Shown: piece by piece, positions 1,936 to 20,004 of the stretch
How the letters are laid out: every line of letters starts with the position of its first letter
Numbering within the stretch: the stretch's first letter is position 1
NCBI GenBank assembly: GCA_030648615.1
Contig: JAUSHJ010000045.1
Coordinates: 25,071-89,070, forward strand
Direction: 5' to 3'
Length of the DNA: 64,000 nt
From: Candidatus Micrarchaeota archaeon
Lineage (GTDB): Archaea > Micrarchaeota > Micrarchaeia > Anstonellales > Bilamarchaeaceae
Notes under the pieces: model-generated
The model's input: the letters and a program-made list of their open reading frames with translations, nothing else
Database searches by the model: none
Told to the model about the DNA's origin: nothing
Position numbers and translations under genes: made by a program

Positions 1936-2442
1936 TTAGGATGTAGCCTTATCAAACTTTTCAAGAAATTGAAAAATTTCAGATGTAAATTCTTTTGGAA
2001 AAAAATCAACTAAAATTAGTAAATATTTATTATCCATATTTTCAAAAAATGAAACGAATACTGCATTTTGAACTTCGTCCTTGCTCTCTTCTTGACACCT
2101 CAATATAAATTGTGCAATTCTTTTTGTTAATTCCGTATCTTTTTTTGTAATTGCATCTTCACAAAATCTACGAAAATAACCAAATACAATATTAACTCCA
2201 ATATCACAATCTTCCTTATTATTTTCATAAATCTGTTTAAATTCAGGAAATGAGTTTATAAGTTCTTTAATAAAATTTTTTTCATTAATTTTTGAATTAT
2301 CACTATTTGCTATGACCCAACCCGTACCGTCAGAACAGTCTGAACCTACAGCATGTTTGATATTTTCAGGAGTTCGTTTTGTGCTTGGTGGAGCTTTTTC
2401 TCCTTTTTGTTGATCGCTAGATCGAAGCTGAAAAATTAGCAT
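1936..2442 (-). CDS. hypothetical protein, paralog B; same N-terminal motif
   Basis: 168 aa; its ATG overlaps the SUI1 stop (TAATG), implying translational coupling; contains TKRTPENIKHAVGSDCSDG. Confidence 0.5.
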   Translation of the reverse strand: MLIFQLRSSDQQKGEKAPPSTKRTPENIKHAVGSDCSDGTGWVIANSDNSKINEKNFIKELINSFPEFKQIYENNKEDCDIGVNIVFGYFRRFCEDAITKKDTELTKRIAQFILRCQEESKDEVQNAVFVSFFENMDNKYLLILVDFFPKEFTSEIFQFLEKFDKATS

Positions 2443-3786: not shown

Positions 3787-4491
3787 TCACCTTAGCTGCT
3801 TATTTTGCTTGATATTTGACTCCGAATGTTTCACCTTAGCTGTCTGTTTTGCTTCGGATTTTGCATCATGTTTTACTTCTGATCTCGTATCATGTTTTAT
3901 TTCTGAATGTTCATGCTTTTCTTTTGTATCAGATGCCTCTAATTTTGTATCGTGAACATGTGGTTTTGCTTCAGTTTTAACTTCCTGTTTTGGATCTGGT
4001 TTCTTTATGTCAACCTTCTTCAAAGCTCCAGGAGTCCCTTTAAGGACTATTTCAATTCTAGCAGTGGAAAAGTTTTGTTTCATCTTTCTTCCTTTTGCTG
4101 ATAGTCTACCATAAATCATTTTGGTATTTGCTGCTGCATGAACTACAATAAGATCATTTTCACCAAAACCCTTAACGCGTGCATTTGCAATGGCACTTTT
4201 CACTACTTTTAATACTGCAGCTGCGGCTTTCTTTGGATATCTTCCTTGTCTTCCTCCCAATTCTCTTCTGTGCCCAAGATTCTTATTATGACGAGCAAAT
4301 AAAATTGGAATTTCTCCTTCTGCAGCTTTTTCCAAAAATGCAACAACTCTATCAGCTTTTTTCTGAGTTATTCTACCGCAAACCTGTGAAAGATCTCTTG
4401 TAGATGCATCTACTCCTTCCACTCTTGCGAATGCGAAGGAATTGATATCCTCTTTTGTTTCAAATGAGTAACTTTTTGTCATAATCATCAC
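3787..4491 (-). CDS. rpl22: 50S ribosomal protein uL22 with ~80-aa K/E/H-rich C-terminal tail
   Basis: N-terminal ~150 aa is the L22 fold (GRITQKKADRVVAFL...); C-terminus is low-complexity KHD/KSE repeats. Confidence 0.85.
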   Translation of the reverse strand: MMIMTKSYSFETKEDINSFAFARVEGVDASTRDLSQVCGRITQKKADRVVAFLEKAAEGEIPILFARHNKNLGHRRELGGRQGRYPKKAAAAVLKVVKSAIANARVKGFGENDLIVVHAAANTKMIYGRLSAKGRKMKQNFSTARIEIVLKGTPGALKKVDIKKPDPKQEVKTEAKPHVHDTKLEASDTKEKHEHSEIKHDTRSEVKHDAKSEAKQTAKVKHSESNIKQNKQLR

Positions 4492-5641: not shown

Positions 5642-5714
5642 AAATATTCACCAAATTTATAATCATTTATATTCTACATTTTACCAATCATCATTCTACC
5701 TTCTACCAATCATA

Positions 5715-5975: not shown

Positions 5976-6711
5976 ACATTTTTTTCAATTCGTTTAAAGC
6001 ATTCTCACTATATATGGTTACCCTTCCACCAGCACAGCCAGGAGCCAAATGTTTTACTTTCAATTTAGAAGGTGAAACGGTTTCTACACCAGCAATATTT
6101 TTTGCTGCTTTCAAAACGTTTCCAGTGGCAACTACTAATGCACCTTTGCAACCATTGCTCTTGGAATTGATAACCATTGAATTTAAGTTAAGCAACTCGA
6201 AAACTTTTAATACGTCTTGAGTTTTCTTCAGTGATTCAAAAGAATTATCCATAACTAAAGGATAGGAGGCTAAGGAAAGTTTTTTGTATCTTGCATTTAC
6301 AACATCCTTCTGAGCTGTTGCAGCCAATGCACTCATTAATGCTTTCCTGTATTCTTTCTTATTAACTTCTTCTATTATTTTAGTTTCAGGTTTTGGAGGA
6401 TGTGCTCTTCTACCCTTAACAGCATGAGGAACTCGTTTTACTTTACCGAACTGTCCTTTTGGCTGGACTTCGTGAGGTAAGTGTGGAATACCTTTGTTCT
6501 TTATTGCACCGTACATTTCTTTTCTTCCACGGTATTTGGCACTAGTTTCCAAACCTGCAAATTTATAAGAACCCTTTGGCTGGTATTCTTTGCTTTCATC
6601 GCTAAGGACTGCTCGCTTTATCAAATCATCACGATAATGCCCTTCGAAAACTTCCGGCAAATCTATTTGTTTGAGCGCTTTTCCTTCAATCGAATATAAT
6701 GTTGTTTTCAT
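5968..6711 (-). CDS. rpl4: 50S ribosomal protein uL4
   Basis: 247 aa; position and composition typical of archaeal L4. Confidence 0.9.
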   Translation of the reverse strand: MKTTLYSIEGKALKQIDLPEVFEGHYRDDLIKRAVLSDESKEYQPKGSYKFAGLETSAKYRGRKEMYGAIKNKGIPHLPHEVQPKGQFGKVKRVPHAVKGRRAHPPKPETKIIEEVNKKEYRKALMSALAATAQKDVVNARYKKLSLASYPLVMDNSFESLKKTQDVLKVFELLNLNSMVINSKSNGCKGALVVATGNVLKAAKNIAGVETVSPSKLKVKHLAPGCAGGRVTIYSENALNELKKMFA

Positions 6712-6720
6712 ATGTTACAC

Positions 6721-7665
6721 CTATTGCTTTGAATCCAAAGAAGTATAGTTAAGCTGTGGCTCCTTGAATGCTGGAGAACGAACACCTAATCTTAATTTCA
6801 CAAGTCTCTTTGGTGGACCTGGCACTGAACCATGTACTATTATGTAATCATTTCTTACAAAACCATAGTGAGGAAAACCATCTTTTGGATTTATTTCTTC
6901 TACTTTCTCACTAATTTTCATAATTTGCTTATTCAACTCAGTTCTTTTATGATAACCAGTTTGACCAGCTTGTGGAACAGTGTAAAGTACGTAAGCAGGA
7001 TGCCACTGACCCAAAGTACCTACGTGTCTATATTTACCTGTTGCTTTTCTTCTTTGCTTGGCAATACCAAATCTTTTTACAGGACCTTGCCAGCCTTTAC
7101 CTTTTGTAATAGAAACAATATCTACGAATTCACCATGCTTGAAAACATCTTTTGCTCTTATTTCTTTGCCAGCCAATGTTTTTGCATATTCGATTTTTTC
7201 ATTGACATCTTTTCCACCAATACCAAGTTCCATTCTTTCAATGTGCTTCTTGCCTATCTTGGTTTTTGATGGCTGTACGAAAACTAGTAAACGAACATCA
7301 TTAACAGATTCTACTTTAACTTCCTTTTGCTGTAAAGGTTTTTTTATGTTGAGTAATTTTAATACAGTAGCATCTGCAGTTAAAACATCTGCAATTGAAT
7401 CCATGCCATCGTAGCATCGATAACCATATACTTGTATTGGTGGCACTTCAATTACCGTTGCTGCACCAGTTAGCTCCTGACCTTTTGTAGGAGATTCTCT
7501 GTGATCTATATATGAAATATGAGTCATTCCAACTTTATATCCTGCAAATCCTAGAACACGTTTTTGTTCTTCGTCCTTCCAGTAAACCCTAGGGTTCTGA
7601 CTAGCTGCCCTTTTTCTTGGACGGAATGCCATACTACCTCTGCGCGGTCTTCTTAAGTCTGTCAT
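6721..7665 (-). CDS. rpl3: 50S ribosomal protein uL3
   Basis: 314 aa; PRRGSMAFRPRKRA N-terminus and FGIAKQRRKATGKYRHVGTLGQWHP motif; first gene of the cluster. Confidence 0.95.
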   Translation of the reverse strand: MTDLRRPRRGSMAFRPRKRAASQNPRVYWKDEEQKRVLGFAGYKVGMTHISYIDHRESPTKGQELTGAATVIEVPPIQVYGYRCYDGMDSIADVLTADATVLKLLNIKKPLQQKEVKVESVNDVRLLVFVQPSKTKIGKKHIERMELGIGGKDVNEKIEYAKTLAGKEIRAKDVFKHGEFVDIVSITKGKGWQGPVKRFGIAKQRRKATGKYRHVGTLGQWHPAYVLYTVPQAGQTGYHKRTELNKQIMKISEKVEEINPKDGFPHYGFVRNDYIIVHGSVPGPPKRLVKLRLGVRSPAFKEPQLNYTSLDSKQ

Positions 7666-7694
7666 TGATAAAACACCTTATGTTTTTGAAATAT

Positions 7695-7775
7695 CCCAAT
7701 TGTTGCAATGCAACAATGGGCATCTTGTCGCTCAACGCGACAAGCTTGTTGTCCGTTAGGACAATTCATATGAAT
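7695..7775. repeat. hairpin-cluster repeat element, copy 1 (upstream of the ribosomal operon)
   Basis: cccaattgttgcaatgcaacaatgggcatcttgtcgctcaacgcgacaagcttgttgtccgttaggacaa: three consecutive TTGTYG/CRACAA stem-loops plus the AATGGGCATCTTG linker. Confidence 0.8.
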
Positions 7776-7946: not shown

Positions 7947-8555
7947 TCAACTGGTGTGTTTTCCAAAATCTTTTGTTTCTCCATTAGCAGGTTGAACTTC
8001 GAATAATTTTAACTTTTCTTCACTTAGAGAATCAACAGTAAGACGAGTTACTAGCTCAGTGTAAAAAAAATGCATACCTTTTTTTGCCCACGCATAAATA
8101 AGCATAATTGCAGTTGCAGCCATGACAGCAAATGCCCATTTTCTTGCAGGCTCACCTAAATCACGCGCATGATCAATTAAACGATTTATCAGAAATGCAA
8201 CCGGCGTAATCACTGACCAAAAAGTACCCACTAAAGTAATAGTTGCAATGCTTACTCTGGCATGCATATAAGCAATTTTTCTTGCTTCCATAACTGCAGT
8301 TTCATCTAGTTTTTTTGATTCTGAAACCATTGGTGTCGCAATGAGAGCACGATCTAATCTACGCATATGTAATACTTCATGAAATATATAAGAACCGGAT
8401 TTACCTATGCCGGCATCTTCTAAATGCAATTTGTCTCCTCTTAATGATTGTGCTTTCAACCGATCTAACTTAAAACGATTTATTCCACTTGGAAGCAGGT
8501 ATGCTCTTTCGAAAGGTTCTTTGAATACCATTTTTCGTTTTATATCGATTGCCAT
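7947..8555 (-). CDS. hypothetical membrane-anchored protein, family X member 1
   Basis: 202 aa; shares MVFKEPFE, HMRRLDRALIATP, ARKIAYMHAR and EPARKWAFAVMAATAIM with the 8616..9155 ORF; C-terminal transmembrane helices. Confidence 0.55.
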   Translation of the reverse strand: MAIDIKRKMVFKEPFERAYLLPSGINRFKLDRLKAQSLRGDKLHLEDAGIGKSGSYIFHEVLHMRRLDRALIATPMVSESKKLDETAVMEARKIAYMHARVSIATITLVGTFWSVITPVAFLINRLIDHARDLGEPARKWAFAVMAATAIMLIYAWAKKGMHFFYTELVTRLTVDSLSEEKLKLFEVQPANGETKDFGKHTS

Positions 8556-8615
8556 AAATTACGCGTCACCTGTTTTTCCTGAAGTTTGTTAAACATCGAA
8601 TAATTTTAACTTTTC

Positions 8616-9155
8616 TTAACTTAGAGACTTTCCAAGGAAAAAATCTATTAGCCAGTTAACATAGGATTGAAGAACATCTTGTCCACTTTTGAAACTAGTC
8701 ATAATTGCAGTTGCAACCATAACAGCAACTACCCATTTTCTTGCAGGCTCTATAAAAATCGCTATAGATGCTGCTACTTCACCCGCTAAAAGAGTTATAC
8801 CAACTGCATCAATAGATGCAATGAATAACCGAGCACGCATATATGCATTTTTTCTTTCTCCCATTATTTCTGCTTCCGTAAATTTTTTAAATTCACTGTC
8901 GATGGGAGTTGCAGTAAGCGCACGATCTAATTTACGCATATGACTTATTTCACTGCCAGTATAAACACTCAGACTTATCATAATAGTTGTATCTTCTAAA
9001 AGCAAATTATTTCTTGCCAGTACATTTGACCTTAATTTAGCTAAATTGACAAATTTATTAAGGACCGGAAGTACTTTTTCAAATGGTTCTTTAAATAGCA
9101 TTTTTCTATCTAGACCAAATAATTTTCTAGTTAAATCAGTTCCCATAAATAACAC
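8616..9155 (-). CDS. hypothetical membrane-anchored protein, family X member 2
   Basis: 179 aa; clear paralog of the 7947..8555 ORF (MLFKEPFEKV, HMRKLDRALTATP, ERKNAYMRAR, EPARKWVVAVMVATAIM). Confidence 0.55.
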   Translation of the reverse strand: MLFMGTDLTRKLFGLDRKMLFKEPFEKVLPVLNKFVNLAKLRSNVLARNNLLLEDTTIMISLSVYTGSEISHMRKLDRALTATPIDSEFKKFTEAEIMGERKNAYMRARLFIASIDAVGITLLAGEVAASIAIFIEPARKWVVAVMVATAIMTSFKSGQDVLQSYVNWLIDFFLGKSLS

Positions 9156-9191
9156 TAAATTATAATTAGTATAAAAAGGTTTTAAATAGTG

Positions 9192-9626
9192 TTATATCAC
9201 GCTTCTTCGTGTTTTCAAATGAATTGTCGCTTTGAACTTTTTTCTTAAAATTTCCTTTGCCGCCTTTATTCTCTCCCCTTCTTTACCTATTGCAATTCCC
9301 CTATCTTTCTCATCTATTGTAAGTACTATAGCCAAATCGCCCATAATATTCTGAACTTCCACAGATAAAATAGAAATATTATTGAACATACCTCTGACAA
9401 AAAGTTCAGGATCAGACATATCTCCAATTATAATTACTTTTCTCTTGAAGGCATCTCTCAATTTCTGCATATTACTGCCGTTTTTACCTATTGCTTTTCC
9501 TAGTTCAGCAACAGGGACAAGAAAAATAAGCAATGTAGCTGAAGGTTCATAATCAGATGGCATAACACGAGTTATGTTTTCAAAAACAGAAAACATATTT
9601 AAATCATCATTTGTAAGTTCAACCAT
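9192..9626 (-). CDS. nusA: transcription termination/antitermination factor NusA (archaeal, KH domains)
   Basis: 144 aa; two KH-like GKAIGKNGSNMQKL and IAIGKEGERIKAAKEIL motifs; position after L30e. Confidence 0.8.
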   Translation of the reverse strand: MVELTNDDLNMFSVFENITRVMPSDYEPSATLLIFLVPVAELGKAIGKNGSNMQKLRDAFKRKVIIIGDMSDPELFVRGMFNNISILSVEVQNIMGDLAIVLTIDEKDRGIAIGKEGERIKAAKEILRKKFKATIHLKTRRSVI

Positions 9627-9630
9627 AATT

Positions 9631-10224
9631 TTAACCTTTTACCTCTGTAGCTCCAGATTCTATTTTATTATTTCTATTAACATAATGTTCAAATGTTTTC
9701 CCTAAAAAAGTAACTAAACCGATGGTAATTCCACCAGCAATACCTTGAAATATCCAATGACGATGATATGTGGAAAACAATGCTGCTAAAACAGGAGCGC
9801 TAAGAATAGTTGCTACTGTAGCCTCGCATGAAATTGGAAACCATGTATTTACTCGTGATGAATGTGTGTATCCAATTTCCCTTACTTCGAATCGTTCTTG
9901 TTCCGTCAACGTTTTCTGTGGCCATTCAAATATTTCTGCTTTTATTGCATGCGCTTTAACACGCATTAATTTAGTCTCTTCAATTTTATATCTCGCAAAA
10001 ACAATTGGATGCGATAGTATTGCAAGTGTCCTGCCTTTTCTTGGATTAACATAAGTATAAGAAAAATCAGATACTTTTCCATTTCCCCTCGTATCTGGAT
10101 GAATTAAACCTTTCCCAGTATATTTTGAGACGTAAAAAGCAAATACTTTGTCAATCGCCGATTTGAAAAGAACAGCTTTACCTTGTACAACAACCATTTG
10201 TGTTAACCTTTTTTTACAATGCAA
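9631..10224 (-). CDS. hypothetical membrane-anchored protein, family X member 3 (divergent)
   Basis: 197 aa; N-terminal MVVVQGKAVLFKSAIDKVFAFYVSKYTGKG...LSHPIVFARYKIEE aligns with MVKIYGFSERVMFREVQDTVRASFKSTKGKS...LEHPVCAFRYARAE of the 15581..16183 ORF; C-terminal transmembrane region; inserted between L30e and NusA. Confidence 0.5.
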   Translation of the reverse strand: MHCKKRLTQMVVVQGKAVLFKSAIDKVFAFYVSKYTGKGLIHPDTRGNGKVSDFSYTYVNPRKGRTLAILSHPIVFARYKIEETKLMRVKAHAIKAEIFEWPQKTLTEQERFEVREIGYTHSSRVNTWFPISCEATVATILSAPVLAALFSTYHRHWIFQGIAGGITIGLVTFLGKTFEHYVNRNNKIESGATEVKG

Positions 10225-10226
10225 AA

Positions 10227-10661
10227 TTACTTTGCTTTCTTCTTTACAAGATCAAGAATGTTTGAACTTCCTTGTTCATAAATCGACAATATGCTAATTG
10301 GAAATGGTTTACCGCATATGGAACCGAGATCGATTGAACTACCTTCAAATTCAATTGTAGGTACCTCGCTCTTCAATGCCTTGAATTTTTCCATGACTCC
10401 TGAGACATTGCCAGCAACTACGAAAAGTTTTGCCTTGCCAACTGCAGCATTCTTGAGACCAATATTAGAACCAAATTCTACTTTTCCACTTTCAACTGCC
10501 AATCTGATTGCAGCACTTAGAGGATTTTCTTTTTCTTTCTTAGACTTTCTCCTTCGCACTACTTTCTTAGTTGGAGCATACTCGTCTTTTCCTGCTTCGA
10601 GTTCACTATCAGTTTCAGTACTTTCTTCTACGCCCATTTTTTCTTCTTTTTCGTCAACCAT
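10227..10661 (-). CDS. rpl30e: 50S ribosomal protein eL30 with charged N-terminal extension
   Basis: C-terminal 95 aa LSAAIRLAVESGKVEFGSNIGLKNAAVGKAKLFVVAGN is the L30e/L7Ae fold; conserved position after rpoA''. Confidence 0.8.
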   Translation of the reverse strand: MVDEKEEKMGVEESTETDSELEAGKDEYAPTKKVVRRRKSKKEKENPLSAAIRLAVESGKVEFGSNIGLKNAAVGKAKLFVVAGNVSGVMEKFKALKSEVPTIEFEGSSIDLGSICGKPFPISILSIYEQGSSNILDLVKKKAK

Positions 10662-10689
10662 AAAAATTACCCCTCATTTTTGTAAATAT

Positions 10690-11766
10690 TTACTTCTTTC
10701 CCTTTAGTATAAGCTTAATCTTACCAGTACCAACCGGAACGGTCTGACCAACTATAATATTTTCAGTTACACCGATAAGATTTTCATCTTCAGAGAACGC
10801 ACTTGCATTTATCAAATGCTTTATTGTTTCTTCGAAAGCTGCTCTTCCGAGTACACCGACTTTTTCTCCGCTTAAACCGTGTCTTCCAATTGATTTGACT
10901 TGACCAGAATAACATACTGCATCGGAAACAAGCATGATATGCCTAATGTCAACATAAAGTTTTTGCATGTCCATGACATCTTTTATTTCTTTTATGATTG
11001 CATTTCTAGCAGCTTCTATACCGAAAACTCGTTCGATTTCTTTTATGTTATTAGTATAGATTCTTTTCGGATCTACTGCTGGATTTTCCATGGCACCTAA
11101 AATATTACTTCCTGCAGCTCTTATAAAGTATTCACCGTCTCCTTTAAGTACCACTGCTCGTTCTATTCCAGGAACTCCTTTCACTATTCCGTTCTTAATT
11201 TTATTTCCGAGTCTGCGGACATTTTTAGCTGTGAACTCCAATGTCTCCTGTGGTTCGCCTTCCTTGGCAGTTTTTTTCTTCTCTTTTTTAGGAGAAATTA
11301 CTATTTTTTCTTCTCCTACTATTTTGAGATTAGCAGAAAAGTTTTCAAGAGCTTTCTTGAGTGCGTTGAAAGTAACACCTAAAGTTTTTCCATCTTTCTC
11401 ATTAAACGTAACAGTTATTGTCTTATCTGAAAGATCATCTTCTACTCTGGCGACATCTCTTACGAACACACTGGTTATTTCCAGCATTATTTTTCCAGCT
11501 TCTGCTTCACTTTTGTGAGCACTCTTGAGATAAATATCGATGACTGGTTTCTTTGGTTCTTTTTTTGAATCTACTATTTCAATTAATCTAGGAAGACCAG
11601 TTGGCACGTGCTCTGCTACACCTGCATAGTGGAATGTTCTCATTGTCATCTGTGTACCTGGTTCACCGATGCTTTGTGCTGCGATTACTCCAACTGCTTC
11701 GAACGCAGGAATAGATGCTTTCCTTAATTTTTCCATTTTGTCAGATTTATCAGATTTTTCTACCAT
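10690..11766 (-). CDS. rpoA2: DNA-directed RNA polymerase subunit A''
   Basis: 358 aa; [21 protein letters not shown] and C-terminal GQTVPVGTG motifs typical of A''. Confidence 0.9.
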
Positions 11767-11848
11767 ATAAAAATCACCATTTTTATATATTTGTCGGCAT
11801 TTTTTCTTGACGACAAATCATAAATTTTTCACCTTGTAAATATTATTT

Positions 11849-12247
11849 TCATCTTATAACCAACTGAGCTCGCATAGAAGCTAAATACTGATCACTTTGA
11901 ACTTCGGAACGATTTACAACATAGAATGCCTGTTTCACTTCTTGTGGCAAAGATCCGACTAATCCCAAGAAACGAGACTGTGCAGTTGTAACCGCAGCAA
12001 CAAACTGTGATACTTCAGTACGAGTTTTTCTACCCTTACCCATAGATACGATATCATGTCTCAAAGCATGAAGTTGCCCAATTCTAGAAGCTAGGACAGA
12101 ATCTTCCTCTCCAGTAGCATACTTCACTTTTTTCTGTCGATCTTTCAACACAATCTCTACTGCACCAACCTGATTTGTAAATCCACGAACGTATGCTCGA
12201 GCATGATCCGGTAAAGGTTTTCCTTTGATATTAGAATGTCTTGTCAT
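11849..12247 (-). CDS. small basic hypothetical protein (MTR-start ORF 3 of 3)
   Basis: 132 aa Arg/Lys-rich ORF; only long ORF on either strand in this interval; tandem with two similar-sized ORFs between rpoA' and rpoA''. Confidence 0.4.
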   Translation of the reverse strand: MTRHSNIKGKPLPDHARAYVRGFTNQVGAVEIVLKDRQKKVKYATGEEDSVLASRIGQLHALRHDIVSMGKGRKTRTEVSQFVAAVTTAQSRFLGLVGSLPQEVKQAFYVVNRSEVQSDQYLASMRAQLVIR

Positions 12248-12268
12248 TGTATCTCCATTTAAATATTA

Positions 12269-12526
12269 TTAGTATCGTTTAGTTGGCTTTGCAACAGGAC
12301 AGATTAATGGAATTGGATACTCTCCCATTGAACCTAGCATATAGCTGCCACCAACATCGTGATAAATCGTAGGTCTTCTTCTTACGTATAATGTTGCACT
12401 TGCACATAAAATACCCTCACGTTCTACCAACGGTTCTTTTCTATGAATTACTAACCTGCTACCTCGTTGAAGCGAATAATGTCCTCTGATATTTCTTTCT
12501 TCTCTTCTTGTGAGTGTTCTTGTCAT
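12269..12526 (-). CDS. small basic hypothetical protein (MTR-start ORF 2 of 3)
   Basis: 85 aa, starts MTRTLTRREERNIRG; 13-nt spacing from upstream ORF. Confidence 0.4.
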   Translation of the reverse strand: MTRTLTRREERNIRGHYSLQRGSRLVIHRKEPLVEREGILCASATLYVRRRPTIYHDVGGSYMLGSMGEYPIPLICPVAKPTKRY

Positions 12527-12539
12527 TATTATTCACCAG

Positions 12540-12815
12540 TTATACATCAATATTTCCTTTACTAGCTGTACGTATTTCTCTAGCCCTCGCTTCGTTCCTT
12601 TCATTGGATTCTGCTACGTCTCTATCGATTCTTCGAGCATATTCTTGAAAGAACTGAACACTTGCACGAGTGTCAGCAAGTTGTTTTTCTGATGATTTGA
12701 TTTCTGGAACTTCTACTTCCAAAGGTTTACTTTTGAACGGAGGCTTTGTTGTATCTACAACGCTACCCGTCCTTCCGCTTCTACGACGTTGTGTATCAGC
12801 TCTGAATCTTGTCAT
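12540..12815 (-). CDS. small basic hypothetical protein (MTR-start ORF 1 of 3)
   Basis: 91 aa, starts MTRFRADTQRRRSGRTG; sits 76 nt after the rpoA' stop. Confidence 0.4.
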   Translation of the reverse strand: MTRFRADTQRRRSGRTGSVVDTTKPPFKSKPLEVEVPEIKSSEKQLADTRASVQFFQEYARRIDRDVAESNERNEARAREIRTASKGNIDV

Positions 12816-12891
12816 TTTTTCACCATCAAATTAAATGCCTCGAGACCCAGAACCAAAATTCGGAACTGAAGACTCGAAACTCAAAACAGAA

Positions 12892-15558
<2,667 letters not shown>

Positions 15559-15580
15559 GTTTATTACCTCGTGAATATTA

Positions 15581-16183
15581 TTATCCTGATTGAGTTCCTG
15601 CACTTGATACTCCTCGTAAATGTTCTACGTTAGATAATATTGCTTCTGAAATATCAAATTGTACAGTCAATTTAGGATCGTAAGCTTTTCTTTCGCAACG
15701 TTGTCTTGCTACGTAACCCCATACCAAAGCAATTGCTACTCCAGCTGCAGAAGCCATGAACCGAAGATTGGAAAGACTAGGTCCGAGTGTCACGAAATGC
15801 GTAGCGATATCTGCAGCAAGAATAAGCGCAGTACCACCGGTTGCAATAATAGAACCTCGCAAGTCCCCCAGATGCTGCCATGCATTGGAATATGCATTCT
15901 TTCTAGCAGTTCTAACTATTACTTCACGCGATTCCACATTCGGAGAAGTCACCGGAGTCGCAACTTTAGCTTTAGCAATATCTCGCATGTATTTTCTTTC
16001 TGCCCTTGCATACCTAAATGCACAGACTGGATGCTCGAGCATTAGACTACGTTCGCCATCCAGATATTTTCTGCTGAAAACATCAAACGCTGATTTGCCT
16101 TTCGTAGATTTGAAACTAGCTCTAACTGTATCTTGCACTTCGCGGAACATCACACGTTCACTGAAACCGTATATTTTTACCAT
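15581..16183 (-). CDS. hypothetical membrane-anchored protein, family X member 4
   Basis: 200 aa; paralog of 7947/8616/9631 ORFs (VMFREVQDTVRASF, YMRDIAKAKVATPVTSP, ARKNAYSNA); lies between rpoB' and rpoA'. Confidence 0.5.
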   Translation of the reverse strand: MVKIYGFSERVMFREVQDTVRASFKSTKGKSAFDVFSRKYLDGERSLMLEHPVCAFRYARAERKYMRDIAKAKVATPVTSPNVESREVIVRTARKNAYSNAWQHLGDLRGSIIATGGTALILAADIATHFVTLGPSLSNLRFMASAAGVAIALVWGYVARQRCERKAYDPKLTVQFDISEAILSNVEHLRGVSSAGTQSG

Positions 16184-16258
16184 GATTTTTCAACCTTCTA
16201 CCAGAGTTCTACCATCTAGCATCTACCCTCTACCCGTAGTTCTAGCTTCTAGCAATAA

Positions 16259-18112: not shown

Positions 18113-18175
18113 ACCTCAAACTTTGTTTGAGGACCGACAAATCGAAGTTTCGATTTGTGGTCCACAAAATGCCAC
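18113..18175. repeat. hairpin-cluster element, copy 7 (short; between the rpoB halves)
   Basis: cctcaaactttgtttgagg, caaatcgaagtttcgatttg and gtggtccac: three adjacent perfect inverted repeats. Confidence 0.6.
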
Positions 18176-18235
18176 TAGCATTTTGTAGGATTTTTGAACA
18201 ACAGTTCAATCAATCCTCATTAATGAATATTATTT

Positions 18236-18550
18236 TTATTCTAGTTTACTTCGACGCCTACTGTAAGTTATAGCAACCGGAACACGTCCAGAGCCTGGAT
18301 GAGTAATACCATCACGTACACTATGAGTTGGACCGACTACAATTCCTCCACGAATGAGACTAGTTTCTCTAGCCCGAACAAATGGATGTCCACCACCATC
18401 ACCAAATGCAGAAGCTTCTGCAAGTGGATTTTCAACCAAACCTCTTCGATTACGAACATCTGCCCTGACACCGGCATGTCTTCTGCTGGTATTGACTGGC
18501 TCTGCAGCTTGTCTTTGAATTGATCGATCTTGAGTTTTTTGTCTTGACAT
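18236..18550 (-). CDS. small Arg/Gly-rich hypothetical protein inserted between rpoB'' and rpoB'
   Basis: 104 aa from ATG 18550, 5 nt after the rpoB'' stop (the listed ORF 18236..18559 begins with a GTG codon overlapping the rpoB'' stop by 4 nt); sequence MSRQKTQDRSIQRQ...GGGHPFVRARETSLIRGGIVVGP; higher GC than surroundings. Confidence 0.4.
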   Translation of the reverse strand: MSRQKTQDRSIQRQAAEPVNTSRRHAGVRADVRNRRGLVENPLAEASAFGDGGGHPFVRARETSLIRGGIVVGPTHSVRDGITHPGSGRVPVAITYSRRRSKLE

Positions 18551-18555
18551 GAAAA

Positions 18556-20004
18556 TCACTTGACGTCAAACGCTTTGAGCAATTTATGAATTTCCTCATC
18601 ATCAATACCTGTGGAAACTTCTGCCATAACTGCAATGTTCTTTACAAGAGAACAACTTGGACCTTCTGGAGTTTCGTTCGGACATAATTTACCAAGATGA
18701 GTACCATGGAGATCTCTTGCTTTGAAGTGTGGATGCTTCTTGCTCAGTGGAGAAATAACTCTCCTCAAATGCGAAATAGTTGAAAGATAACTGACACGAT
18801 CAAGTAATTGTGAAACACCAGTTTGACCTGCAATCCAGTTACCGGTTGCCATTGCATATCTTATTCTGTCTGCCATAGCATCCTGTCTAACTAAAGTATG
18901 TACTTGCAATCTTCTTCCACGAGCATCTGCTCTTGAAGCCTGATAAACTAAATCTTTGATCAAGAATTGGAATGCATATCTAAACAACTCTTCCATCATT
19001 TCTCCGGCTAATTTCACTCGCTTATTTGCATAGTGATCTTTGTCATCAGGAGCAATTTCTTTATATGAAACTCGGGTTGCTTTTTCTGCCATCTTTATTA
19101 AAAATTTAGCTTTTTCAATTCTGTCAGCTTTTGTTACACCAACGTGAGGCAAAAGATAATTATCGATTAGGCTTTCCATCCTGTTTAATCGGAATTCTGC
19201 AGGCTGGCCTGGAGAAAGTTTTCTGCTAAGTAGATCGACTGCATCTTCTCTGACTTTACTCTCTTCTGTTTCCGTATTGAGTATCACATCGTTCTGTATG
19301 TGCTTCTGCTGAGAGAATGCTTTTGATATCTCGCTATTACTTTCGAAAGCTAAAACTCTCAAAAGTTGAAGTAATGGTATTCCTGCTGGAGCTGATGGGA
19401 ATTCTACGCTGAATGCACCATCTGCATTTCTTTCAACCACACATCTTGCTCTAAATCCATAATGAGTTGAAAATATTTTTGCCACGATACCAGATTTTTC
19501 TGTGGTTACCATCAGTTTGTTTGGTACCAAATCTTCTATGCTAACCAATACACGTTCACTTCCATTGATGATAAAATATCCACCCGGATCGTCTGGATCT
19601 TCGCCATTTTGAATAAGTTCGCTTTCACTTAAATTAGATAAATAACATAATTTTGATTTTACCATTACTGGAATTTCACCAATAAAAACATCACTGTAGG
19701 TTGGTCGTTCAACACCGTTGAAAATTGGAATTATTTCAAGAAAAACAGGTGAAGCGTAGGTAAGATTTCTTAATCGTGCTTCAGTTGGATGGATCTGCAT
19801 GTAACCACCTTTTACTTCGTAATATCGTGGCTGCTCTATCCTAACTTTTCCAAGCTTAAGTTCAAAACCTTCTACGTTAGTTTGTATTTTTCCTATATGA
19901 GTAACAACATCCTGTATCCCCTTATCAACAAATTTATTGTAGGATTCGAATTGTTGTTTTACTAAAGTATTTGCTCGATAATATGCTTCAATTAATCCAT
20001 CCAT
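18556..20004 (-). CDS. rpoB2: DNA-directed RNA polymerase subunit B'' (N-terminal half of split RpoB)
   Basis: 482 aa; rifampicin-pocket and fork-loop region motifs (GYFIINGSERV, ANKRV). Confidence 0.95.
   Translation of the reverse strand: MDGLIEAYYRANTLVKQQFESYNKFVDKGIQDVVTHIGKIQTNVEGFELKLGKVRIEQPRYYEVKGGYMQIHPTEARLRNLTYASPVFLEIIPIFNGVERPTYSDVFIGEIPVMVKSKLCYLSNLSESELIQNGEDPDDPGGYFIINGSERVLVSIEDLVPNKLMVTTEKSGIVAKIFSTHYGFRARCVVERNADGAFSVEFPSAPAGIPLLQLLRVLAFESNSEISKAFSQQKHIQNDVILNTETEESKVREDAVDLLSRKLSPGQPAEFRLNRMESLIDNYLLPHVGVTKADRIEKAKFLIKMAEKATRVSYKEIAPDDKDHYANKRVKLAGEMMEELFRYAFQFLIKDLVYQASRADARGRRLQVHTLVRQDAMADRIRYAMATGNWIAGQTGVSQLLDRVSYLSTISHLRRVISPLSKKHPHFKARDLHGTHLGKLCPNETPEGPSCSLVKNIAVMAEVSTGIDDEEIHKLLKAFDVK

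Follow-up and report, generated by a model that had tools for sequence, protein, structure and literature searches.

The window analyzed here is a stretch of 64,000 nucleotides from a Candidatus Micrarchaeota archaeon (contig JAUSHJ010000045.1, positions 25,071 to 89,070 of the forward strand), and it carries a cluster of RNA-polymerase, NusA and ribosomal-protein genes in which four genes of one protein family, here called A, B, C and D, are interspersed. All four are found on the minus strand, where an initial annotation made from the sequence alone had placed them, and all their neighbors are co-oriented, as that annotation had also described; the identities of the neighbors were confirmed with Pfam. 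Gene D (16183-15581) lies between rpoB′ (18103-16259, with Rpb2 domains 4-7), located upstream, and rpoA′ (15558-12892, with Rpb1 domains 1-5), located downstream. The ATG at 15558 was taken as the rpoA′ start, as the longer open reading frame (ORF) aligns with the homologous loci L012 and L034 only from residues 16-20 onward. Gene C (10197-9631, within ORF 9631..10224) is found between the gene for ribosomal protein L30e (10661-10227, PF01248) upstream and nusA (9626-9192, with KH_2 and KH_5 domains) downstream. Genes B (9146-8616, within ORF 8616..9155) and A (8555-7947) follow one another between nusA and the gene for ribosomal protein L3, which starts at 7665.

Gene A is preceded by a Shine-Dalgarno sequence (GGTGA) and encodes 202 amino acids, identical to the NCBI hypothetical protein Q7S22_05435. 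Gene B (P0005) encodes 179 amino acids if translation starts at the GTG at 9155, and 176 from the annotated ATG at 9146, with no clear Shine-Dalgarno sequence upstream. Gene C encodes 197 amino acids, or 188 from the ATG at 10197, a start also used by its ortholog P0004; the protein is identical to hypothetical protein Q7S22_05450. Gene D encodes 200 amino acids, identical to hypothetical protein Q7S22_05485.

A, B, C and D make up a true paralogous family. The four-member paralogy had been proposed in the initial annotation, and pairwise comparisons and profile searches agree on it. A and B are 41% identical (E=7e-33), and D matches B (E=7e-7), A (E=2e-5) and C (E=2e-5, over 163 residues). 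The match between A and C is marginal if considered alone (E=1e-3). When profiles made of three members were run against the 554 stop-to-stop ORFs of the window, the member left out was recovered in every case (A, 1e-21; B, 2e-19; D, 4.7e-5; C, 6.8e-4), and the next ORF in the window appeared only at E≥0.08. A fifth member was sought in the window and none was found. Relatives from other genomes, described below, link C-like and D-like sequences within one coherent alignment, and a 13-member hidden Markov model scores each member at E≤1e-40. The N-terminal motifs that the initial annotation had attributed to all four proteins hold exactly for A and B, are looser in D and are loosest in C; likewise, all members have a C-terminal hydrophobic region, while its motif EPARKW..AVM.ATAIM is restricted to A and B. 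The family, with members of 176-218 amino acids, is defined by the N-terminal motifs F-[KQR]-x-A-x-D, [HY]P-x-V-x-x-R-Y...E...M-R and A-x-x-A-x-P...E-x-R-x-x-[AG]-[YH], after which come two hydrophobic helices.

Family genes are separated from their neighbors by 4-75 nucleotides: 75 between rpoB′ and D, 22 between D and rpoA′, 29 between the L30e gene and C, 4 between C and nusA, 45 between nusA and B, and 60 between B and A. Because of co-orientation and short gaps, co-transcription of the family with RNA polymerase, NusA and ribosomal proteins is strongly implied, as the initial annotation had anticipated, and the dose of the family proteins would then follow that of the expression machinery. 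A scan with bacterial-type promoter and terminator models, a model type ill-suited to archaea, gave no signal above that of shuffled sequences. The composition profile around the family genes did not show a foreign-DNA signature, D being only slightly richer in G+C. No match was obtained over the whole window with Rfam (at gathering thresholds) or ARAGORN, and the spacers are devoid of known RNA genes.

To examine the distribution of the family, 1.84 billion cluster representatives were scanned by HMMER with a four-paralog profile (E≤1e-3). The scan yielded 12 proteins, namely the four encoded in the window and eight others. A 13th member, P0013, is encoded by a gene of 187 codons found locally in L012. 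Word-index protein searches with the 13-member and D-like alignments gave, among the matches listed, only known members and P0013, and when metagenomes were scanned with the C-like alignment, only L034 came up, which is a near-copy of L002. Three groups are distinguished in a neighbor-joining tree: the A/B group, present only in the genome of the window; a C-like group made of C, P0004, P0006, P0008 and P0012; and a D-like group made of D, P0013, P0007, P0009, P0010 and P0011. The carriers are groundwater Micrarchaeota that belong to a few lineages and have G+C contents of 36-53%; rpoB′ of L006 is only 76% identical to that of the window.

Slots of the kind used in the window are occupied by relatives in other genomes as well: 11 of the 13 members directly adjoin a gene for RNA polymerase, NusA or a ribosomal protein, and homologs are thus not confined to unrelated contexts. 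The slot between rpoB′ and rpoA′, which harbors D in the window, is also used in L002-5 and L034 (rpoB′-P0006-rpoA′-rpoA″-L30e-NusA), in L006 (rpoB′, a low-complexity ORF of 218 amino acids, P0007), in L007 (rpoH-rpoB″, an ORF of 98 amino acids, rpoB′-P0008) and in L012, where two copies are present. The order in the latter locus is rpoB′, an ORF of 74 amino acids, P0012-P0013-rpoA′, three ORFs of 198, 70 and 84 amino acids, rpoA″-L30e-NusA, a NosD-like gene of 887 codons, and L3. The slot of C, between L30e and NusA, is shared with L001 (rpoA″-L30e-P0004-NusA), and the slot between NusA and L3 is used by A and B in the window. In L008-10, P0009 is found between S12 and S7. P0010 is followed, 3 nucleotides downstream, by a gene of at least 378 codons, and P0011 (L011) by an epimerase-like gene. 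Since slots recur across genomes, the association with the operon is no peculiarity of the window contig. On the other hand, 21 RNA-polymerase operons from species representatives of other Micrarchaeota (L013-L033) contain no member; their NusA is 37-63% identical to that of the window, and most of these operons keep the canonical order rpoH-B″-B′-A′-A″-L30e-NusA. The distribution is therefore narrow and patchy.

One might argue that A-D are not genes at all, and that chance ORFs or decayed remnants lie in expanded spacers. An AT-rich genome favors long ORFs, B lacks a clear Shine-Dalgarno sequence, and an ORF of 107 amino acids in the gap between rpoB″ and rpoB′ may well be spurious. This explanation is effectively refuted by the significant paralogy and orthology, by ratios of nonsynonymous to synonymous substitution (dN/dS) below 1, by a high-confidence fold prediction obtained from a 12-sequence alignment, and by a two-helix architecture kept in all 13 members. 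The ortholog of C in L001, an independent assembly, is 52% identical and occupies the same slot, and the 4-nucleotide stop-to-start junction with nusA is also kept. The Nei-Gojobori dN/dS ratio is 0.26 for C and P0004, 0.38-0.51 for other C-like pairs and 0.57 for A and B, compared with 0.02-0.08 for NusA, L30e and rpoB′ over the same genome pairs, all of these values being rough as synonymous sites are near saturation. On the basis of orthologs, dN/dS below 1 and a confident model of the N-terminal domain, the family members are genuine genes.

The predicted proteins share a common architecture. Two C-terminal hydrophobic segments are found in 13/13 members (Kyte-Doolittle mean of 1.2-2.3 over 17 residues), separated by a loop of 6-18 residues and followed by a tail of 20-45 residues. 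In A, a basic N-terminal domain precedes helices at around 107-123 and 141-157 and a tail of 45 residues. AlphaFold2, run with the 12-sequence alignment, gave a full-length model of D with a mean pLDDT (predicted local distance difference test score) of 78.6, above 90 for residues 10-100. The N-terminal domain of D modeled alone reached a pLDDT of 86.7, with five models in the range 82-87, and a predicted template-modeling score of 0.80. In the D model, a beta-hairpin (residues 2-13) is followed by helices at 14-23, 27-41, 47-50, 52-66 and 69-74 and by a short strand; a long helix then runs from around residue 87 straight into the first hydrophobic segment, and a tight turn, the second hydrophobic helix and a C-terminal helix complete the structure. 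The N-terminal domain is thus a basic module of about 100 residues made of a short beta-hairpin and five helices. Residues F13, Y58, E62, M66, A72, A75 and R94 (D numbering) are invariant or nearly so. Because none of these looks catalytic, the domain may be a binding module rather than an enzyme.

The hydrophobic segments probably insert the proteins in the membrane as a two-helix hairpin. No signal peptide was found in family members, the N-terminal domain is basic, and lysine plus arginine residues, summed over the 13 members, are enriched on both outer flanks (29 before the first transmembrane helix, TM1, and 35 after the second, TM2) compared with the loop (20); full-length isoelectric points are 9.4-10.7. 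From these traits we infer an N-in/C-in topology in which the folded domain would be cytoplasmic. TM2 is rich in small residues, and a GxxxGxxxG glycine zipper is present in 5/5 C-like members including C, which suggests helix-helix packing or oligomerization of the hairpin in the membrane.

Neither the sequences nor the model could be connected with a known family, and a literature search did not yield any description of these proteins. The best Pfam matches scored 12-17 bits against cut-offs of 25-28. NCBIfam gave no family for D and, across 12 members, single-member matches only, with E≥0.019. PHROGs gave no credible match, PADLOC defence models returned 0 families for 12 members, and scans of viral contigs gave no relatives. 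The best match of the family profile to 177,635 PDB sequences had an E value of 0.42. With a fold match defined as a Foldseek E≤1e-3 or a template-modeling (TM) score above 0.5, the full model gave a best E of 0.7 against PDB, and the N-terminal domain a best E of 3.6 against PDB (TM score ≤0.34) and of 0.83 against BFVD. The profile and structure searches proposed along with the initial annotation thus matched no known family or fold, and both the family and its predicted fold are previously undescribed and without known relative. Two specific candidates were discarded in the process: a mobile ORF of the homing-endonuclease type (LAGLIDADG, GIY-YIG, HNH), as no Pfam domain of any kind was found, and an archaeal RNA-polymerase subunit or factor (Rpo8, Rpo13, Spt4/5, TFE, TFS, Elf1), as there was no Pfam, PDB-sequence or Foldseek match.

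The same searches bear on the idea that these are small membrane proteins involved in conflict, such as a toxin-like or pore-forming effector, a superinfection-exclusion protein or a protein of the host-symbiont interface. Their expression would be wired to the host RNA-polymerase operon, and an arms race would account for the rapid divergence and for the turnover of paralogs. The fast evolution of the family and the changes in its set of paralogs fit such a scenario, and so does the glycine-zipper hairpin of the C-like members. Glycine-zipper transmembrane hairpins are common in oligomeric channel formers. In addition, the weak top rows of the Foldseek output are alpha-pore-forming toxins and stators of the TolQ/ExbB/MotA type, all of them with E≥0.7 and hence not significant. 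Against this scenario stand the lack of PADLOC and PHROGs matches, of relatives on viral contigs and of similarity to BFVD models, together with dN/dS below 1 throughout and no recognizable partner antitoxin, immunity or lysis gene. Altogether, we consider a role in conflict very unlikely.

Examination of DNA around the family genes showed how the family multiplies. A and B arose by tandem duplication of a 597-nucleotide unit (span 7974..8952, minus strand): repeat families D1-D3, D5 and D8 show an offset of 573-597 nucleotides and 70-88% identity, and the B stop with the spacer between B and A (8571-8627) is 82% identical, at an offset of 597 nucleotides, to the 3′ end of the A coding sequence (7974-8030). 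B is shorter than A at the C-terminus because of an earlier stop. A second case is found in L012, where the C-like P0012 gene and the D-like P0013 gene are in tandem, both with ATATTCACGAGGT on their 3′ side. This arrangement indicates that the duplicated unit was the gene with its 3′ spacer. In the window, the spacer between D and rpoA′ (15559..15580, minus strand) is TAATATTCACGAGGTAATAAAC, a conserved stretch of 22 nucleotides that carries the rpoA′ Shine-Dalgarno sequence. As a leader, ATATTCACGAGGT stands before rpoA′ in L002, L007 and the window; it lies 3′ of a family gene in L002, L007 and L012. The family therefore multiplies by tandem duplication (A and B; P0012 and P0013) and is differentially lost or relocated. 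In the simplest history, a C-like and D-like pair would have stood in front of rpoA′ in the ancestor, the D-like copy would have been lost in the L002 and L007 lineages, and the C-like copy would have relocated to the L30e-NusA slot in the lineage of the window and L001. All slots are part of a single ancestral supraoperon (rpoH...NusA-S12-S7), and part of the clustering can thus be explained by local duplication.

An array of repeats fills the spacer between rpoB′ and D (16190..16253, minus strand), where eight tandem heptamers of the form G[GC]T[AT]GA(N), typically GGTAGAA, end 6 nucleotides before the D ATG. Each unit contains TAG or TGA and is similar to the local Shine-Dalgarno sequence, GGTGA. 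The array is supported by 3 matches versus 0.03 expected and by a period of 7 in Tandem Repeats Finder, and no heptamer cluster appeared in 200 shuffles of the window. A remnant is found between the L23 and L2 genes (5695-5707, minus strand). In L012, arrays occupy four spacers (66-104, 329-356, 4259-4322 and 6526-6593), and several are found in L001 (478-504, 977-996 and 2092-2123). None was detected in the 21 other Micrarchaeota loci, and the arrays occur only in the family-carrying clade. They may be translation or RNA-binding elements, or else recombination substrates for cassette turnover. Downstream of nusA in L001 (2090-2190), the heptamer sequence is present in both orientations and gives rise to a long inverted repeat, GAGGCTAGAA..ACGACG / CGTCGTTCTAGCCTC, possibly a terminator or a processing hairpin made of repeat units.

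The family does not fill every position at which the operon departs from the canonical order, contrary to the initial annotation: other inserts are found at 11849-12815, in the gap between rpoB″ and rpoB′, and at 1057-2442. The first of these, between rpoA′ and rpoA″ (11766-10690), consists of three small ORFs without kinship to the family (11849-12247, 12269-12526 and 12540-12815, minus strand; 132, 85 and 91 amino acids), all of which start with MTR and lack Pfam matches. Only the ORF of 91 amino acids has a relative, the ORF of 84 amino acids found at the equivalent position in L012 (5155-5409; E=8e-6); the slot contains three ORFs of other sizes in L012 and none in L002. Comparison by hhalign of the N-terminal domain profile with the ORF of 132 amino acids, and with ORFs occupying slots in L028 (114 amino acids) and L031 (158 amino acids), gave probabilities below 1%.

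Further upstream in the window lie rpoH (20305-20048) and rpoB″ (20004-18556), both on the minus strand and confirmed by Pfam. The spacer that separates rpoB″ from rpoB′ (18555-18104, 452 nucleotides) contains the above mentioned ORF of 107 amino acids, rich in arginine and glycine (18236-18559), and hairpins such as those at 18114-18132 and 18164-18186. The equivalent spacer of L007 has 458 nucleotides and a non-homologous ORF of 98 amino acids, and no convincing alignment with the window gap was obtained. Downstream of A, a spacer of 281 nucleotides (7946-7666) precedes the minus-strand series L3-L4-L23-L2-S19-L22-S3-L29-SUI1, in which L3 was confirmed by Pfam. This spacer is richer in G+C, has hairpins (for example, 7724-7744 and 7690-7726) and matches neither tRNA genes nor Rfam; a promoter or leader for the L3 operon may lie here, or a small RNA. 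What follows NusA in this clade is the L3 (S10-type) operon rather than S12-S7 (window 9192-7665; L012 7096-10973); S12 and S7 are not present within the 64-kb window. The NusA-L3 junction is occupied by B and A in the window, and by the NosD/beta-helix protein of 887 amino acids in L012. Finally, the S10/spc operon harbors two ORFs (1057-1824 and 1936-2442, minus strand; 255 and 168 amino acids) between SUI1 and an RNase P p29-like gene and S17. They have in common an N-terminal module of 31 residues, KRTPE.IKHAVGS.CSDG...NSDN, with 74% identity (E=1e-13), and their C-terminal parts are unrelated, one of them being DUF7674 (E=3e-13).

One possibility, tentative and as plausible as the adaptor function considered below, is that the family genes are accessory cassettes that hitchhike on the operon. 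The role of the proteins in the membrane would have no relation to transcription or translation, and a promoterless ORF would be expressed only from within an operon that is already strongly transcribed; duplicates would land nearby, and repeat-rich spacers (GGTAGAA, duplicated ATATTCACGAGGT) would favor recombination, gain, loss and relocation. Several observations are in agreement: slot and copy number vary among close relatives, the distribution is patchy, and dN/dS is relaxed (0.26-0.57). Unrelated ORFs share or neighbor the slots, including the three between rpoA′ and rpoA″ in the window and those of 74, 198, 70 and 84 amino acids plus the NosD-like gene in L012, and L028 and L031 carry other ORFs between rpoB′ and rpoA′. 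In L012 and L001, cassettes have heptamer arrays on their flanks, and in the window such an array stands before D; the duplications of a gene with its 3′ spacer in L012 and of A and B also agree. A hypothetical gene reported between rpoB and rpoA1 in the DPANN archaeon GW2011_AR10 (PMC10833476), likened to the family by its slot alone, points in the same direction.

Other observations are harder to reconcile with hitchhiking. As many as 11 of the 13 members reside in operons of the expression machinery, no member has a clear location elsewhere, and the association is held across G+C contents of 36-53%. Neither terminal inverted repeats nor target-site duplications were found flanking family genes; integron-type attC inverted repeats do not flank them either, and only direct arrays of 7 nucleotides are present. 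No recombinase or integrase was seen beside the family genes, a negative observation made without a systematic integrase search of the window or the source genomes. Furthermore, the arrays are also found at insert-free spacers, for instance that between rpoA″ and L30e in L001 and L012.

Our main reading, held with the same caution and relying on genomic context, is that the family members are membrane-anchored adaptors. The cytoplasmic domain would bind a component or a product of the transcription-translation apparatus and hold it at the membrane, and the A/B, C-like and D-like subfamilies would be diverged versions of such an adaptor. In support of this reading, the operon context recurs in independent genomes, and the junctions of C with nusA (4 nucleotides) and of D with rpoA′ (22 nucleotides) are conserved. 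The family has also persisted for long, as seen in the spread of G+C content among carriers and in rpoB′ identities down to 76%. An association with the operon that is maintained across distant carriers, together with purifying selection, argues against pure neutrality. There are also precedents for membrane proteins in expression operons, secE with nusG-L11 and secY in the spc operon, and a DUF106/EMC3-like gene is found near adenylate/cytidylate kinase-like genes in L009.

A number of observations weigh against the adaptor. No physical partner was predicted, either for this adaptor or for the membrane tether that the initial annotation had tentatively suggested, and the hydrophobicity of the putative transmembrane segments is only moderate. 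The family evolves 4-7 times faster than its neighbors (dN of 0.40 for C, versus 0.057 for NusA and 0.114 for L30e). Copy number (1, 2 or 4) and slot vary among genomes whose RNA polymerase is 87-98% identical, and some of the 21 Micrarchaeota operons devoid of the family are as close as L006. Fast rate, variable copy number and slot, and patchiness are less expected in a core partner of a near-invariant machine. In addition, local duplication within the ancestral supraoperon could by itself explain the clustering, neighboring slots of the same operons contain unrelated ORFs, and the gene that follows P0011 does not belong to the expression machinery.

A bolder version of the adaptor reading, which we regard as rather unlikely, is that the family provides a dedicated membrane dock for coupled transcription and translation in ultra-small episymbiotic archaea, with paralogs specialized for different partners and the GGTAGAA arrays as a shared cis-element. 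D-like and C-like copies would serve the RNA-polymerase core, C would serve NusA and L30e, and P0009 would act between S12 and S7, while the arrays would tune translation of the paralogs or mediate their spread between slots.

Whatever the function, one lineage has time and again retained, duplicated and relocated a protein without recognizable relatives inside the RNA-polymerase and ribosomal cluster. If binding to the expression machinery proves true, the family would be the first membrane anchor for such machinery in Archaea, and a lead on how tiny DPANN cells organize gene expression at the membrane. If the genes are hitchhikers, the family and its heptamer spacers would show that cassettes can turn over even in a core operon and use it as a platform for their expression. 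In both cases, the confidently predicted N-terminal fold without a PDB match is a candidate for structure determination.

Comparison with known systems reveals partial likenesses. Like the secE, secY and DUF106/EMC3 insertase genes, the family encodes membrane proteins from co-directional positions inside expression operons, where dose would follow the machinery. Unlike them, it has no sequence or profile similarity to translocon or insertase proteins, and while translocon genes are universal, single-copy and slow, the family is found in few Micrarchaeota, in 1-4 copies, changes slots and evolves fast. Membrane-anchored anti-sigma factors (ZAS/RsiW type), which are co-transcribed with the factor that they sequester, also combine a small cytoplasmic helical domain with a membrane tether and are encoded beside transcription genes. 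The family differs from them in having no N-terminal anti-sigma Pfam domain (zf-HC2, HxxxCxxC), no conserved Cys/His motif, no fold match and two transmembrane helices with both ends presumably on the same side; besides, to our knowledge, Archaea lack sigma factors. With class II holins and pinholins the family shares two transmembrane helices, a putative N-in/C-in topology and a TM2 with small residues or a glycine zipper. Holins are small (under about 150 amino acids), consist mostly of transmembrane helices, have no folded N-terminal domain of some 100 residues and are encoded next to lysis genes in viruses, whereas the proteins described here have 176-218 amino acids, are encoded beside RNA-polymerase and ribosomal genes, and have no PHROG match, viral relative or lysin neighbor. 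The hypothetical gene of GW2011_AR10 (PMC10833476), compared by position alone, shows this unusual slot in use in a further DPANN lineage. The likenesses to secE/secY, anti-sigma factors and pinholins are functional rather than homologous, and in each case the family lacks the defining feature of the system.

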